Assembly (NCBI GenBank): GCA_965215265.1 | Contig: OZ244048.1 | Span: 4,736,001 to 4,800,000 of the forward strand | Length of the DNA stretch: 64,000 nucleotides | Direction of reading: 5' to 3' | From: Candidatus Poribacteria bacterium | GTDB lineage: Bacteria; Poribacteria; WGA-4E; WGA-3G | Shown here: positions 55,590 through 61,308 of the stretch, one piece after another | Position numbering within the stretch: position 1 is the stretch's first letter | How the letters are laid out: each line of letters begins with the position of its first letter | The notes under the pieces: model-generated | Databases searched by the model: none | Seen by the model: the letters and a program-made list of their open reading frames with translations, nothing else | What the model was told of the DNA's origin: nothing | Translations under genes and position numbers: made by a program

Positions 55590-55904
55590 AAACTGTTCCT
55601 TTCAATTGCGCCATTTTAGATAAATAGATTACCATACATACCCAATAAAGTCAAACAGTTTTTAGTATATTTCAGCACAGCAAAGACGGATTTGAGGATT
55701 CTGAGATTTAGATTCAATACATCGAATGGCTCTGGCGAGGGTTGTAAAGCACTAAACATTACAACTGCCTTTATTGGGCTAAAAGAGGCGAAAAAAGCGA
55801 CGGATATCAAAAATAATTTGACATGCCGCGGCACGATGTGATATATTCTCAAACTCAGGTTACAATTCACAATTTACAATAGATTTATTGAAAGACAATT
55901 AACT

Positions 55905-56879
55905 ATGGCCGTTAAAACACTATTTACAAAAGATGACTTTATAACGATCCTTTCAAAGTACCGCCTCGGAGATTTCATCAGGTTTGAACCGCTTGTAGCT
56001 GGCACAGTGCAGACAAATTTCTTATTGCAGACGACACAGGGCACGTTTGTATTTCGCTACTACGAAAACCGCTCAAAAAAGTCAGTGCAGTTTGAAAGCA
56101 GTTTGATGAAGTATTTACATCAGAAGCGTTATCCATGTCCTGCTCAGTTTAAGAATAAGGATGGCGTATATGTCGGCGGATATAAAAGAAAGCCTTTCGT
56201 GATTTTTGAATTTGTGGCAGGAGAACATATACCAAATCCTAATCACGAACAGAAACAGCAGCTTATACAAAAAGTTGCCCAACTTCATCACCTTACTCAA
56301 GGGTTTCAACCCAGAAATATAGATAAGCGATTGAATTATACAGTTGAAAATTGCAGAAATCTCGCACATAAACAAGCAAAAAGTGTTGGAACGATAGATG
56401 CACAAGCGAAGTTGAAATGGTTCGAAAATGAATTAATCACGTTGTCTTTACCGGCAGCTTTACCCAGAGGGGTTTGTCACTGTGACTTTCATTCCTCCAA
56501 TGTGCTTTTTAAAAACGGTGAATTCAAGGCACTTATAGATTTTGATGATGCTAACTATACATACCTGAGCTATGATTTGGCTGCATTACTGAATCCTTTT
56601 GTTCGTTCTTTTAAATGGGATACGTGGTTTAATTTTGGAAAAGATGAGGATATTTTTGACTTTGGAGAAGCGCAAGAAACAGTCGCGGAGTATATAAAGC
56701 ATAGAGTACTCAGTAGCGTAGAGAAGGAACATCTGTTTGATGTATTTAAACTGAGCATTATGTTTGATTGCGTTTGGTACTACGACAGAGGGGATGCAGA
56801 AGACTTTTTTGAAAAGAGAAAAATCGATGCCTTGAACTCGCTTGGACGAAAACCGTTTTATAATTTGGTATTTTTCTGA
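55905..56879 (+). CDS. Homoserine kinase type II / APH-like phosphotransferase
   Basis: GTVQTNF, LPRGVCHCDFHSSNVLF, LIDFDDA, YDLA; visibly AT-rich; TTGACA-18nt-TATATT upstream at 55818. Confidence 0.8.
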   Translation: MAVKTLFTKDDFITILSKYRLGDFIRFEPLVAGTVQTNFLLQTTQGTFVFRYYENRSKKSVQFESSLMKYLHQKRYPCPAQFKNKDGVYVGGYKRKPFVIFEFVAGEHIPNPNHEQKQQLIQKVAQLHHLTQGFQPRNIDKRLNYTVENCRNLAHKQAKSVGTIDAQAKLKWFENELITLSLPAALPRGVCHCDFHSSNVLFKNGEFKALIDFDDANYTYLSYDLAALLNPFVRSFKWDTWFNFGKDEDIFDFGEAQETVAEYIKHRVLSSVEKEHLFDVFKLSIMFDCVWYYDRGDAEDFFEKRKIDALNSLGRKPFYNLVFF

Positions 56880-56982
56880 GGAATTCACTTTTTTGTCTAT
56901 TTGAGTCCATCAACGTCTGATGTTTTGATAACCCTTGTACAAATCTCGCCAGAGCCTATCTCTGTTTTGCATTGTCTTATGC

Positions 56983-57074
56983 GCTGAAAGAGACCAAAAA
57001 ACCGTCGGTGACGTGCTGAAAGAGACGAAAAATCTGAAAAAAGACTTGACAAAAAACGTTGATTGTGTTATACT
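56983..57074 (+). promoter_or_regulatory. Near-consensus promoter preceded by two 18-bp direct repeats
   Basis: GCTGAAAGAGAC(C/G)AAAAA at 56983 and 57015; TTGACA(57046)-17nt-TATACT(57069) with TG extension. Confidence 0.7.
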
Positions 57075-57793
57075 ATAAAATACGCTTTGAGTCAGGCAAA
57101 AAGAAAGTTTGACAAAAAGTGTTGGTTTCTAATAAACTGCATTCACTAGAATCAGAACAAGGGAAAATAGAACAGATGAAACACCGAGAGTCCGTTTACC
57201 CCATAAGCAGAGTGCCTGGCCCCGTGTTGCGGGTTTGTAGTTTTGGCACGAACGCGTGCGTATGCCGTGCTGTCGTGTGTTTTAAGTCCCAGTTAAGACG
57301 ATTGACCCCCCCCTAACTTCAAGTACGTTAACCCTTTTATTAACTCAGGCAGCATCTACATCAACCTTCGTTGCTGCTTTCTCACGCCTGCACGCCTCCC
57401 GTCTCGGACGGTGGAGGCCGTTGCAGGCTTTTTTTCTGATGCATGCGGCGTTCAGTTGCAGGGCCCCCGGGCACCTGCGTGCGGACCCAGTTGGCTTATG
57501 CCAACGGTGCCGGTATGCCAGTCGCCTCAACTCCTTACCTGATAACACAAGTGCACTCACTCCTTCTTCTGTCTTTCGCGCGTTTATGAAAGACAGCCAT
57601 AAGTGCACTTATGTTAACTTCTCCGTGTTTGGGCGGGGTTCCGGCTGCCTCTGTGCGCCGACCCGCCCGCCATCAAACCGATAACTCTTTATGAACCTAA
57701 CCGGTGCGATAACCGCATCGACAACGGACACATTGTCCGAAAGGATATTTTGAAATGAAAGATTGGAAGAACGCGAAAAAAGGCATCGTGGTA

Positions 57794-59305
57794 ATGAATA
57801 GAAAGTTTGTATCGATTTTGAGCGTGTTGTTTGCGGCGGTCCTCTGCGTTTCCATAGCGGGCTGTGAACGTATAAATAAACCTGCGATGGATGTAGTAGT
57901 GCCACCGGCCGACGAAACCCCGGAGCCGGTTAATGGTTTACTTACCGAGCTATATATTCCCGGTGGCGTGCTTAAGAGGCTACCAGATTTCGACACGATA
58001 ACGCCGGTTCGAACTTTGACCGCAGCGAATATAGATTTTCCTACGAGAGATTATACACAAGGCATTCCTGAACTGGGAATAGCTCTGCGTGAAGATTTCG
58101 CGATTCGGTTTCGCGGGCGGCTGATGGTTGAAACCGCCGGCAGCCACAACTTTAAAATTCGTTCCGATGATGGTGCTCAGTTATATATCAATGGAGGGCT
58201 TATCGTAGATAATGATGGGCTTCAAGGTTCGACAACTGCACAAGGGAGCGCGAGGCTCACGACAGGATTGCACGATGTCGAAATTCGGTATTTCCAAGGC
58301 CCCCTTTTCCAGCTAGGGCTGCAATGGTTTTGGGAGCCTCCCGGAGGGCCAGAACAGATTGTTCCACCAGAAGTGCTTTATGCGCCCGGTGATGACACAG
58401 TAGTGCCGCCCGTAGCGCCGCTGGTCGTAGACACTACGCCGCCGCCAGTCACCACCGCGCCGCCCGCAGGCATGGCACTCATCCCCGCTGGCGACTTCCA
58501 GATGGGCAGTGAGGATGCTGATGCCCGGGATGACGAGCAGCCTGTGCATACAGTGCATGTGGACGCGTTCTATATGGACACGCACGAAGTGACGAACGCC
58601 GAGTATAAAAGTTTTGTGCTGGCAAACCCCGAGTGGCAGAAGACGCGGATTCCGGATGCACTCCACAATGGTAATTATCTAAACCATTGGGACGGTAATA
58701 ACTATCCAGTGGGTAAGGGGGACCATCCTGTGATGAATGTGTCGTGGTATGGTGCGATGGCGTATGCTGCGTGGGCAGGGAAGCGTCTTCCAACGGAGGC
58801 GGAGTGGGAGAAAGCGGCACGCGGTGGGTTAGTAGGTAAGAGATACCCGTGGGGGGACACGATAACGCCGAACGATGCGAACTACGGTAATAATGTAGGC
58901 GGTACAACGGCTGTGGGGAGTTATGCTGCGAACGGATATGGGCTATATGACATGGCCGGCAACGTGTGGGAGTGGTGTCTTGATGAGTGGGATGCGAATT
59001 TCTATGCTAATTCTCCATCTCGGAATCCGTTGAGTGGGGTGAGTGGCGGAACGATAGCGAATGTGGATGAGATTGTAGATAACTACACAAATGTTACCTA
59101 TTCTCGCGTGTTGCGCGGCGGTGGCTGGAACAATAATACACGCTACCTGCGCGCCGCTAATCGCTGCGGGAGTGCACCAACGTTCACGACGACTTCCTCT
59201 ACGGGTTCCGGTGTGCGAGGGCTGTTACTCCTTAAATCTTTACCCCTTTACCCCTTCCGATCTGCGTGCAGATCGGGTCGGCATAATTTATTAACTAATA
59301 GTTAA
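57794..59305 (+). CDS. Lipoprotein: PA14 domain, Pro/Thr linker, FGE-sulfatase (C-type lectin fold) domain; frameshift at ~59189 displaces the native C-terminus (stop 59235)
   Basis: Lipobox IAGC; SDDGAQLYING..VDNDG (PA14); FQMGS, HEVTNAEY, KRLPTEAEWEKAARGG, NGYGLYDMAGNVWEW, RVLRGGGW; GFRCARAVTP* lies in another frame. Confidence 0.88.
   Translation: MNRKFVSILSVLFAAVLCVSIAGCERINKPAMDVVVPPADETPEPVNGLLTELYIPGGVLKRLPDFDTITPVRTLTAANIDFPTRDYTQGIPELGIALREDFAIRFRGRLMVETAGSHNFKIRSDDGAQLYINGGLIVDNDGLQGSTTAQGSARLTTGLHDVEIRYFQGPLFQLGLQWFWEPPGGPEQIVPPEVLYAPGDDTVVPPVAPLVVDTTPPPVTTAPPAGMALIPAGDFQMGSEDADARDDEQPVHTVHVDAFYMDTHEVTNAEYKSFVLANPEWQKTRIPDALHNGNYLNHWDGNNYPVGKGDHPVMNVSWYGAMAYAAWAGKRLPTEAEWEKAARGGLVGKRYPWGDTITPNDANYGNNVGGTTAVGSYAANGYGLYDMAGNVWEWCLDEWDANFYANSPSRNPLSGVSGGTIANVDEIVDNYTNVTYSRVLRGGGWNNNTRYLRAANRCGSAPTFTTTSSTGSGVRGLLLLKSLPLYPFRSACRSGRHNLLTNS
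59105..59276 (+). mobile_element. Putative DGR variable region (VR) with downstream IMH-like tract and hairpin
   Basis: NNC/NNT codons at CLec variable positions; TTTACCCC tandem; CCGATCTGC-GT-GCAGATCGG at 59257-59276. Confidence 0.7.
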
Positions 59306-59440
59306 AAAAGCGTTATAAATAGGGTAAAATATTAACTATCTGTTAATTATCTGCTTATTTTTTGCTTGGTGCGTGCTGAACCCGGTTCGGTTTTGTGCTG
59401 GGCCAAACCGTATCTTGTCCGGCTCGTTTTATGCGCAGCG

Positions 59441-59591
59441 AAAGATAAAAGCAGAGGTGTGATGGTGAGTCGGCCGTGTGCCGAATGCTATCACACCTCT
59501 TTCTCTTTTTTCTCAGCCTGATTTATCTCTGCTTGAAAATGATTCCCTGATGTGTTATCATAAATAAAAAGTATAAGTTTTGAGAAAAAAG
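59441..59591 (+). repeat. Direct repeat copy 1: terminator hairpin plus promoter module
   Basis: AGAGGTGTGATGG...CTATCACACCTCT + T-rich tail; TTGAAA(59533)-17nt-TATCAT; near-identical to 60883-61050. Confidence 0.9.
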
Positions 59592-59624
59592 CACTTGACA
59601 ACTGATACGTTTTAGGAGTCTAAT

Positions 59625-60749
59625 ATGCAGAAGAAGGACATCCACGACTTTTTGTCCGAGATGTCTGTTTCGAACTTTTCGGATCGGAGCATACGCCGTT
59701 TATTAGAAAATACGGAAAACGTCCGGGGCTTGTTAGAAATCGTGTCGGCAGAACTCGCCGAACTGATTGACTTTGAGCATCTGGTTCTAATCAATAGGAG
59801 CCTGCTGCCCGCCACTCTCCGAGAACAAGAGGCAGACATTGTATATCGGGTGCCCTTCAAAAGTGATGGTGATGAGGGTGCGGCAGAGCTGCTCCTCTAT
59901 CTGCTGATTGAACATCAATCGACGGTAGATGCGACGATGGGATTTCGTGTGCTTTTCTACATGATGCTAATTTGGGACGCAGAGCGGCGGCGGTGGGCGG
60001 CAGAGAAGATGCCGAGAAGAGAGCGTGTATTGCCGCCGATTCTGCCCGTGGTGTTTTACACGGGGGAGCGGCGGTGGGAGAAGCCTCTGACACTTGAGGC
60101 GATGATGAATCTGCCTGCGGCGCTCTCTCGATTCGTTCCGAGATTTGACATCCTGTTTCTGAATCTGACAGGCACAGACAAGGCGACGCTGACAGAGGCG
60201 GCGCATCCATTCGGGTGGCTGATGAGAGTGCTGCAACAAGGAGATGCGGACAAAGCGTCTATAAGCCGTGCCTTAGTGGAGACGTTGACGCAGTTGGCGG
60301 CGCTTGATGCGGCGGATTCGGGGCAGCGTAGGGAAGCGATAATGTATCTGGTATCGCTGATTGTGCATCGGCGTTCAAAGGAAGAGCAAGAAGAGTTGAT
60401 AGAGCTGGTAGCCCGGCATACGAGTGACATGGAGGTAGCACCGATGGCAGAGACAATGGCCGAATTCCTCTTAGAACGAGGCATAGCACAAGGCATAGAA
60501 CGAGGCATAGAACAAGGGCGAGAAGAAGGGCGAGAAGAAGGGCGAGAAGAAGGGATTGAGCGAGGGGCGTGCCAGAATGCTATCAAAAATATAACCGCCG
60601 TCCTCAATGCGCGATTCCCTCATTGTGACATACACACTGCCACGCAGAAACTCGAAACGCTTTCTGACCTCGAACACCTCGAGCACCTGCTGCTGACAGC
60701 CGTCAAAGCCGATAGCTTTCAAGCATTCCTACAGGCTTTAGAACTATAG
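59625..60749 (+). CDS. Rpn/YhgA-like recombination-promoting nuclease (PD-(D/E)XK, transposase_31 family)
   Basis: EADIVYRV, YLLIEHQSTVD..MGFRVL.YM, LPPILPVVFYTGERRW, G(R/I)E(E/Q)G repeats; AGGAG RBS. Confidence 0.9.
   Translation: MQKKDIHDFLSEMSVSNFSDRSIRRLLENTENVRGLLEIVSAELAELIDFEHLVLINRSLLPATLREQEADIVYRVPFKSDGDEGAAELLLYLLIEHQSTVDATMGFRVLFYMMLIWDAERRRWAAEKMPRRERVLPPILPVVFYTGERRWEKPLTLEAMMNLPAALSRFVPRFDILFLNLTGTDKATLTEAAHPFGWLMRVLQQGDADKASISRALVETLTQLAALDAADSGQRREAIMYLVSLIVHRRSKEEQEELIELVARHTSDMEVAPMAETMAEFLLERGIAQGIERGIEQGREEGREEGREEGIERGACQNAIKNITAVLNARFPHCDIHTATQKLETLSDLEHLEHLLLTAVKADSFQAFLQALEL
60444..60749 (+). CDS. Putative in-frame small C-terminal protein (RpnS-like antitoxin), 101 aa
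   Basis: GGAGGT at 60431-60436, 7 nt before in-frame ATG 60444 (MAETMAEFLLERG...). Confidence 0.65.
   Translation: MAETMAEFLLERGIAQGIERGIEQGREEGREEGREEGIERGACQNAIKNITAVLNARFPHCDIHTATQKLETLSDLEHLEHLLLTAVKADSFQAFLQALEL
60476..60566 (+). repeat. 12-bp coding tandem repeats (GIAQ/GIER/GREE)
   Basis: (GGGCGAGAAGAA)x3 preceded by GGCATAG(C/A)AC.A units. Confidence 0.85.
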
Positions 60750-60882
60750 AAACGCATGCACCGAACGCCATGGCCGGCACCGGGCTGCTCTTGTCGGGGT
60801 GTCAGGTAGGAACCCTACCGTTATTATGCCCTCTGACAAGCGGAGCATGGAAGGTTGCGTACTATACCGTGTGAGATGAACT

Positions 60883-61050
60883 AAAGATAAAAGCAGAGGT
60901 GTGATGGTGAGTAGGCCGTGTGCCAAATGCCATCACACCTCTTTCTCTTTCAGGCGATACCGATTTCTCCGCCTGATTTGTTTATCTTTGCTTGAAAATG
61001 ATTCCTTGATGTGTTATTATAAATAAAAAGTAGGAGTTTTGAGAAAAAAG
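60883..61050 (+). repeat. Direct repeat copy 2: terminator hairpin plus promoter module
   Basis: AGAGGTGTGATGG...CCATCACACCTCT perfect 13-bp stem; TTGAAA(60992)-17nt-TATTAT. Confidence 0.9.
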
Positions 61051-61308
61051 TGACGGCTAAAAGAGAATTGCATGTCCTGCTCGCTCCAGTCACGGTTCAC
61101 ACTGTCCAACTTCCTGGGAAGAATGGCAGGCACAATGGGAAGATAGCCTACACAAAGGTAGATTTATTTAAGGAATCGCGGGAGGCTGGACTTCTAGGCG
61201 AAATGTATGGAAATCGCGGGACGGATATAGTATACTAGGTCTTTATGCCCCGGCCGCCGGGCGTTTTACACAAAGTTGACCGAATCGCTTTAATCAACGA
61301 GAAATACA

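Follow-up and report, generated by a model that had tools for sequence, protein, structure and literature searches.

The window, a 64,000-nucleotide (nt) stretch of a Poribacteria-like genome of the sponge-symbiont type, contains an FGE-sulfatase-type gene whose 3' end is almost certainly an active, remote target of a diversity-generating retroelement (DGR). The window corresponds to C1:4736001-4800000, where C1 is a single contig of 4,833,177 bp; positions given without a prefix are those of the window. The gene ends in a variable region (VR) whose template repeat (TR) lies elsewhere on the contig, and the assembled copy carries a frameshift inside the VR. The best explanation overall is a remote VR of a chromosomal, multi-target DGR together with a real frameshift tied to mutagenic homing, to which we assign a probability of roughly 0.6.

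The variable region and its adenine signature

The VR was compared with the only TR of the genome (C1:1421035-1421146). Apart from a surplus of 2 nt, the two sequences differ at 15 of the 35 adenines of the template and at none of its 77 other positions (Fisher p = 2e-9). Changes are found at 3 of 14 adenine sites in the 5' part of the VR and at 12 of 21 in the 3' part. As ungapped controls, seven non-target FGE paralogues were used; they differ from the TR at 19-24 of the 77 non-adenine positions and have no adenine bias. Outside the VR, the FGE domain is 81-88% identical to its closest paralogues, so the lack of non-adenine mismatches is due to recent copying from the TR and not to shared ancestry. 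The first-pass annotation of this DNA had recognized a VR with a mutagenic-homing signature at the 3' end of the gene. The codons that it quoted begin at 59105, and their differences from the TR are indeed confined to adenines.

The features of the locus and of the cassette are as follows.

57755..59235, plus strand: target gene in its native frame, with a signal/lipobox-like leader, a PA14 domain, a Pro-rich linker and an FGE-sulfatase (C-type-lectin-fold) domain
59105..59218, plus strand: VR, 114 nt long against 112 nt for the TR
59186..59193, plus strand: indel site ACGACGAC, at the 5' edge of the (AAC)4 tract of the TR; GFRC is out of frame
59203..59228, plus strand: boundary resembling an initiation of mutagenic homing (IMH) site at the 3' end of the VR, a 16-nt GC-rich core identical to the TR followed by 10 nt with fixed differences from the TR
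59239..59254, plus strand: TTTACCCC tandem, within the spacer between IMH and hairpin, kept as one or two copies at hairpin-bearing loci
59257..59276, no strand assigned: GC-rich inverted repeat CCGATCTGC/GCAGATCGG, with an 8-bp stem and a 4-nt loop
C1:1416737-1421146: DGR cassette, with two FGE target genes ending in VRs, a 20-nt hairpin, avd, the reverse transcriptase (RT) gene and the TR

The DGR cassette

The genome has exactly one RVT_1 match (C1:1420096-1420737, 85 bits). It lies in an intact open reading frame (ORF) of 354 amino acids that contains YVDD and IGNLTSQ and ends 90 nt upstream of the TR. The second motif has the form IGxxxSQ, which we take to be the signature of the DGR clade of RTs. 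The NCBIfam models for group II, Drt and retron RTs all matched below threshold, in a comparison that included no curated DGR-RT model. Relatives of the RT are encoded in 379 of the 416 matched stretches. The closest public RT, with 83% identity, belongs to a Poribacteria metagenome-assembled genome (OY282383.1) and is part of a syntenic cassette; the next-closest ones are mostly cyanobacterial, with about 53-60% identity. Avd, a protein of 118 amino acids whose gene adjoins that of the RT, was identified by both NCBIfam (DivGenRetAVD, 120.2 bits, cut-off 80) and Pfam (bAvd, 83 bits, cut-off 40). The TR is 112 nt long, AAC-rich and in frame, and is situated directly downstream of the RT.

Along the contig, about 3.37 Mb separate the RT from the window VR; on a circular chromosome the distance would be about 1.46 Mb. 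Within the 64-kb window there is no RT, Avd or TR, and the only TR-like site is the VR itself. The first-pass annotation had likewise found none of the three in the 64 kb, in agreement with the sole RVT_1 match lying in the cassette. Its description of the target as an orphan was wrong, because the template is present in the same genome. Its proposal of a remote target diversified in trans is borne out by the adenine-only near copy, the 112-nt TR, that a search of the genome found beside the avd and RT genes.

When the cassette was compared with Rfam, the sole match was below threshold (RT-19, 20 against 78 bits), and no RNA family covered the TR or the region downstream. The two Poribacteria-type cassettes have in common a conserved stretch of about 140 nt on the 3' side of the TR (L021 2552-2700 and L022 5240-5400). 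This stretch may be a structured part of the DGR RNA that is used in priming.

Other targets of the same template

FGE-type 3' ends were collected with the 16-nt core, which gave 102 sites at three or fewer mismatches, and a site was counted as a VR if it had at most 12 non-adenine mismatches to the TR. By this definition, the TR matches 30 VRs in 24 ORFs, all of them adenine-biased (Fisher p between 2e-5 and 1e-15). Of the 30, 20 are followed by the hairpin, so that other FGE genes with the same 3' end and hairpin, anticipated in the first-pass annotation, are numerous. More than 100 kb from the RT there are 22 ORFs with 28 VRs. Four VRs have no non-adenine mismatch at all, namely the cassette's own, those at C1:1795834 and C1:4150258, and that of the window. 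An identical hairpin, CCGATCTGCGTGCAGATCGG, is found at exactly these four loci and nowhere else. This genome has 33 TR-like sites, and six of 25 relatives have 9, 9, 2, 2, 1 and 1. Such sites are absent from the remaining 19, which include G001, a member of the same genus with a 95% complete genome.

The modules added to the targets are PA14, dockerin, cohesin or peptidase. Multi-domain targets hold two or three VRs per ORF, as at C1:1664327-1667746 (1139 amino acids, three VRs). A tandem array at C1:997696-1006764 consists of seven short FGE ORFs (201-559 amino acids), each ending in an adenine-biased VR. Several targets have a KVSKVWRAVM-like motif, repeated two or three times in open frame upstream of the signal peptide. 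Examples are found at C1:1261694, 1562231, 1690240, 1793068 and 4441382, and the repeats are either translated or a repeated DNA leader. Truncated VR remnants occur at C1:2998856-2998982 and C1:4393884-4394010, beside copies of the Rpn-like unit described below.

Alleles of the locus in other samples

Runs X3, X4 and X5 come from one study, and the allele evidence consists only of contigs (Logan) and one protein. The strain of the window is present in all three runs, positions 58000-58507 being identical at depths of 714, 4.8 and 45, respectively. A single contig extends across the VR, at a depth of 200 in X3 and 3.7 in X4; X5 has no such contig. Its substitutions relative to the window are at 59135, 59138, 59143, 59144 and 59145, all of which are sites of TR adenines, and it has one additional G behind 59187. 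The tract is thus 3 nt longer than in the TR, and the frame is restored through GFRC. Within the genome the contig fits the window locus best, with 5 mismatches and one gap in 174, and after it a paralogue with 26 mismatches. All 12 of the mutated adenine sites in the 3' part are common to this allele and that of the window; the differences are the five adenine sites, in an 11-nt patch of the 5' part, and the one base.

The protein P0002 (492 amino acids) is encoded on a 60-kb contig of another assembly and belongs to the same 90% protein cluster as the window protein. Before the VR, 449 of its 450 residues are identical to the window protein. Its VR, RVLRGGCWGGNTRDLRVAGRHGLTPAFPNSGNGFRCARAVTP, is unrelated to that of the window, is in frame and has the canonical length. 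One locus is therefore found in three length states relative to the TR: +2 in the assembly, +3 in the reads and 0 in the other assembly. The VR allele varies between samples while the remaining gene is almost identical, showing that the locus is being rewritten. Variation at adenine sites and in-frame alleles, both expected by the first-pass annotation, are thus seen in the X3/X4 contig and in P0002.

In X5, no contig of at least 90% similarity covers 59134-59187, and contigs that skip from 59121 to 59198 or 59202 could represent other alleles or paralogues. Only four raw Hi-C reads of X7 (about 1% sampled) could be placed, with 90-95% similarity, and they are uninformative on alleles. The metagenome contig collection had no match to a locus-specific 30-mer upstream of the VR or to a 34-mer across the IMH and stop codon.

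The IMH-like boundary and the hairpin

Beyond GTGCGA, every VR has the same two A-to-G differences from the TR. As judged from the aligned VRs, these are a fixed difference between IMH and IMH* and not a product of mutagenesis. The inverted repeat begins 21 nt beyond the native stop codon and 38 nt beyond the VR core. At the 20 loci that have the hairpin, it is 30-38 nt from the core. One pair of the stem is T:A at six loci and G:C at nine, and is unpaired at five. By analogy with other DGRs, the hairpin is probably used in targeting. The first-pass annotation had placed the TTTACCCC tandem and the inverted repeat correctly. It had described the latter as a perfect 9-bp hairpin; the inverted repeat is present, but its fold has a stem of 8 bp and a loop of 4 nt, and no usable stem of 9 bp.

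The frameshift

From 59105 the assembled frame reads RVLRGGGWNNNTRYLRAANRCGSAPTFT and then departs from the frame of the family. Past ACGACGAC, the +2 frame reads DFLYGFRCARAVTP and ends at the TAA stop codon at 59233-59235. The assembled frame extends 23 codons past this native stop, and it is because of the frameshift that the assembled ORF (57755-59305, 516 amino acids) reaches 59305. The Pfam match to the FGE-sulfatase domain ends at residue 480 (profile position 246 of 255), which is the point at which the frame is lost. The 2-nt excess that moves GFRC out of frame, as first described in the earlier annotation, was thereby confirmed in both the sequence and the frames.

Eighteen of the 30 VRs are 112 nt long, like the TR. 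The other 12 differ from it in length, ten by net multiples of 3 and two out of frame, so that 28 of the 30 are in frame. In the second frameshifted VR (C1:4150258-4150364, minus strand), all non-adenine positions agree with the TR, and there are five 1-nt deletions, each of them opposite a TR adenine. The first three of these (-1, -2) bring the sequence back into frame and the last two take it out again; the same exact hairpin is present. Both frameshifted VRs are among the four most similar to the TR.

On balance, we take the frameshift to be a real allele, one connected with homing on the (AAC)4 tract. In the reads, the allele has a whole extra AAC-derived codon, and that of the window is the same tract minus one base at an A-derived site. 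Indel errors are scarce in the assembly: none of the 14 full-length copies of the Rpn-like gene is interrupted, and the great majority of the VRs keep their frame. The window allele would be a null (OFF) form, because the frameshift removes the GFRC strand and with it the terminal strands of the lectin fold. The corresponding strands in the model of P0002 are at residues 482-483 and 487-489, and the predicted local confidence (pLDDT) is about 90 over residues 471-490. With the IMH, hairpin and 5' homology intact, a later homing event could overwrite the frameshifted allele. The window allele was also considered as a -1 form of an ancestral TR with five AAC codons. This was rejected, because the TR of the related Poribacteria cassette also has four codons (AAC AAC AAC ATC) between ACG and GGG, and four codons are therefore ancestral.

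A number of observations weigh against this reading, and some of them favor an artifact of the assembly consensus, an alternative that is credible although we hold it to be the less probable. The VR would then still be an active DGR target, but the consensus would have lost a base where reads of many VR alleles piled up, the true allele being one G longer (ACG then GAC...) and in frame. The X3/X4 contig does have the extra G, in a GG pair, and otherwise equals the window allele over 59146-59228; this 1-nt difference keeps an error of the consensus a live rival. Five substitutions also separate the two alleles, though, so that the window allele cannot be the contig allele plus one error. In X3, X4 and X5, three runs that contain the strain at depths of up to 714, the Logan contigs include neither the +2 allele nor the VR words of the window. 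This absence is weak evidence because such contigs drop rare variants, and the path of the contig may itself be chimeric. The 5' part of the VR is unusually similar to the TR (3/14 adenines changed, against 12/21 in the 3' part), as expected of a majority consensus of mixed alleles. Both frameshifted VRs fall within the most TR-like group, which is therefore probably the most heterogeneous one and that in which consensus errors are likeliest. Nevertheless, the other frameshifted VR would require five separate 1-nt errors, and repeats elsewhere in the assembly are clean of indels.

The remaining difficulties concern the mechanism. A mosaic of two alleles that are the same in the 3' part and different in the 5' part is not what one canonical homing event produces. 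The hairpin has a folding energy of -7.7 kcal/mol (z -1.35), which is not significant by folding energy alone, and 10 of the 30 VRs are adenine-biased yet have no hairpin, six of these being internal to multi-domain genes. The support for the hairpin comes from its conservation and the one compensatory pair, not from folding energy. The cassette is known here from DNA alone.

That the gene is a decaying pseudogene, in which a spontaneous indel unrelated to the DGR has struck a disused target, is very improbable. The truncated VR remnants beside Rpn-like units do show that targets decay, and the locus is without its own avd, RT and TR. However, the absence of non-adenine mismatches at 77 positions, in a gene whose other parts have diverged by 12-19% from the paralogues, indicates very recent rewriting. 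The 1350 nt upstream of the VR are open and encode, with the exception of one residue, the same protein as the in-frame allele of the other assembly, and in-frame alleles are abundant in the reads. A programmed frameshift, whether written by the template or made by the ribosome, can be dismissed, since the TR is in frame at the same 112 nt as 18 of the 30 VRs and the surplus is specific to one allele, being absent from the X3/X4 contig and P0002. These last two explanations together have only a marginal share of the probability, most of which belongs to the real allele and, after it, to the artifact.

The target protein

In the 516-amino acid ORF, Pfam recognizes the FGE-sulfatase domain (6.4e-61; residues 238-480, profile positions 3-246 of 255) and PA14 (1.2e-14). 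The sequence IAGC near the N-terminus is presumably a lipobox. The structure of the in-frame allele P0002 was modeled and compared using Foldseek. The model resembles FGE (2q17; E 1e-23, TM-score (TMt) 0.74) and TvpA (2y3c; E 2e-13, TMt 0.64), the latter also being matched by sequence (E 6.5e-13). The FGE domain was predicted mostly with a pLDDT of 85-97; the PA14 half of the model was below 50 and was left out of use. Both the Pfam match and the P0002 model place the VR in a C-type-lectin/FGE-type fold, a type that tolerates variation.

In true FGEs the pair of cysteines in the C-terminal loop is catalytic. In the alignment to 2q17, the C-x4-C stretch of FGE falls within the VR, in a loop that is 3 residues shorter, where the TR codes for S-W-N-N-N-T. 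The target protein therefore lacks the C-terminal catalytic cysteine pair of a true FGE/SUMF1. Because the pair aligns inside the VR and the TR codes for no cysteine, the FGE domain, as read from its sequence, is a variable binding domain and not an enzyme.

Genomic context and the Rpn-like unit

In G001, the genes that flank the locus, a kinase-like gene (window 55904-56874) and glnE (from 61281), are adjacent, about 108 bp apart. The intervening window region, 56875-61280, is thus a 4.4-kb insertion that contains the target gene and an Rpn/YhgA-like Transposase_31 gene. The insertion resembles the cassette in two blocks, window 58462-59430 corresponding to C1:1418428-1419388 and window 59438-61045 to C1:1421281-1422886. 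In the cassette, these blocks are separated by 1.9 kb with avd, RT and TR, which the window locus does not have. Two further features are found here.

59277..59430, plus strand: homologue of the spacer between VR and avd; the locus looks like a cassette without avd, RT and TR
59440..61050, plus strand: multi-copy unit, in which an element of about 160 nt with an 11-bp inverted repeat flanks the Transposase_31 gene

The element is situated at 59440-59600 and, as a direct repeat, at 60885-61050, on either side of the Rpn/YhgA-like gene (59625-60749). The product of this gene matches Pfam Transposase_31 (4.8e-28) and the NCBIfam Rpn family (E 8e-11, 42.2 bits, below the cut-off of 52.1 bits). Including that of the window, the genome has 14 full-length copies of the gene with 88-100% amino acid identity, some in tandem, and nine distant copies. 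In 8 of 11 loci the unit comes immediately after a VR, the TR or a VR remnant, and some units abut the DGR hairpin.

Proposed mechanism

The steps proposed here follow the established mechanism of DGRs. RNA from the TR of the cassette would be copied by a complex of RT and Avd, with misincorporation opposite adenines. The cDNA would then replace the VR wherever an IMH-like boundary and, probably, a downstream hairpin are on offer.

The first-pass annotation had suggested that an indel made in homing and repaired by a later event would give ON/OFF switching. At this locus, in-frame alleles are found in the reads and in another assembly, and the out-of-frame allele in the assembly only; the assembly shows a frameshift in two of the four VRs whose rewriting is the most recent. 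A tentative and rather doubtful extension is that slippage and base loss in the AAC tract might often write out-of-frame VRs that the next homing event erases, so that flickering between OFF and a fresh ON variant would be expected of each of the 24 target genes.

Comparison with known systems

The DGR of Treponema denticola, with its target TvpA, reportedly has several remote targets of the FGE type. Like that DGR, the system described here is chromosomal and not of a phage, and one TR serves targets far from the RT. As in TvpA, the VR is at the C-terminus of a C-type-lectin fold of the FGE-sulfatase type, in lipoprotein-like surface proteins. It differs in the number of distant targets, with 28 VRs in 22 genes located over 100 kb away from the RT, in its Poribacteria-like host, and in the PA14, dockerin, cohesin or peptidase modules of its targets.

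In the DGR of Bordetella phage BPP-1, the VR of mtd is accompanied by an IMH and a downstream hairpin/cruciform. That system shares with the present one a GC-rich identical core followed by fixed differences between VR and TR, a GC-rich hairpin downstream with a 4-nt loop, and Avd. Unlike BPP-1, the present system has the cassette order target-avd-RT-TR, a hairpin placed 38 nt beyond the core with a TTTACCCC spacer in between, activity in trans that extends over megabases, and ten adenine-biased, mostly internal VRs that lack a hairpin.

Phase variation by slippage in simple sequence repeats is known from the contingency loci of Neisseria. By analogy, the length of a tract in a surface-protein gene would set the frame on or off, reversibly and in a multigene family. 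In contrast to Neisseria, where replication slippage makes the change, here reverse transcription of a master template would do so, and its reversal would be by overwriting instead of back-slippage.

Remote FGE-type targets are known in Treponema, and the maximum in the survey of Wu et al. 2018 (PMC5758913) is seven non-adjacent targets. The same survey lists differences in length between TR and VR for 25 of 372 DGRs, 14 being multiples of 3 and 11 frameshifting, and reports that 74% of these indels adjoin AAC, with slippage named as the cause. As in those cases (Wu et al. 2018, PMC5758913), the indel described here borders an AAC tract, indels that keep the frame outnumber those that shift it, and the DGR is of the non-phage, "Lineage 4-related" type with remote targets. 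Unlike in the static comparison of TR with VR in that paper (Wu et al. 2018, PMC5758913), length varies here within one population or species.

For cyanobacteria, the paper of Vallota-Eastman et al. 2020 (PMC7517822) gives 76 remote targets over 21 genomes and proposes nearby transposase genes as dispersers of targets. The remote targets there, as here, are paralogous C-type-lectin genes with a VR at the 3' end and transposase genes near by; the present system differs in having 28 remote VRs in one genome and in that the neighboring mobile gene is of a single Rpn/YhgA-like family. AAC-side indels, remote FGE-type targets and dispersal near transposases are thus of a kind already in print. The system stands out by the number of targets per template, by its host group, and by the occurrence of one locus in three length states.

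Implications

Among the matches listed by a literature search, which concerned cold-seep viruses and a general review, there was no description of DGRs in Poribacteria or in sponge symbionts. Among the papers listed by a second search, which did not extend to the supplements of Wu et al. 2018 with the frameshift cases, none linked DGRs to ON/OFF switching. Real frameshift alleles would suggest, as a testable idea, that DGRs turn their targets off and on as well. If the more tentative proposal of flickering target genes were true, it would amount to phase variation driven by a retroelement over a whole family of surface proteins, dispersed together with an Rpn-like nuclease gene located immediately behind the DGR hairpin.

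One cassette can serve about 30 VRs across a 4.8-Mb chromosome, in a phylum-level group for which we found no earlier description of a DGR. The genome is also a natural experiment on what a remote target needs, since its hairpins are exact, variant or missing, its VRs are terminal or internal, and their non-adenine divergence is graded. Part of the large FGE-sulfatase family in these sponge symbionts would consist of hypervariable binding proteins and not of enzymes that mature sulfatases.

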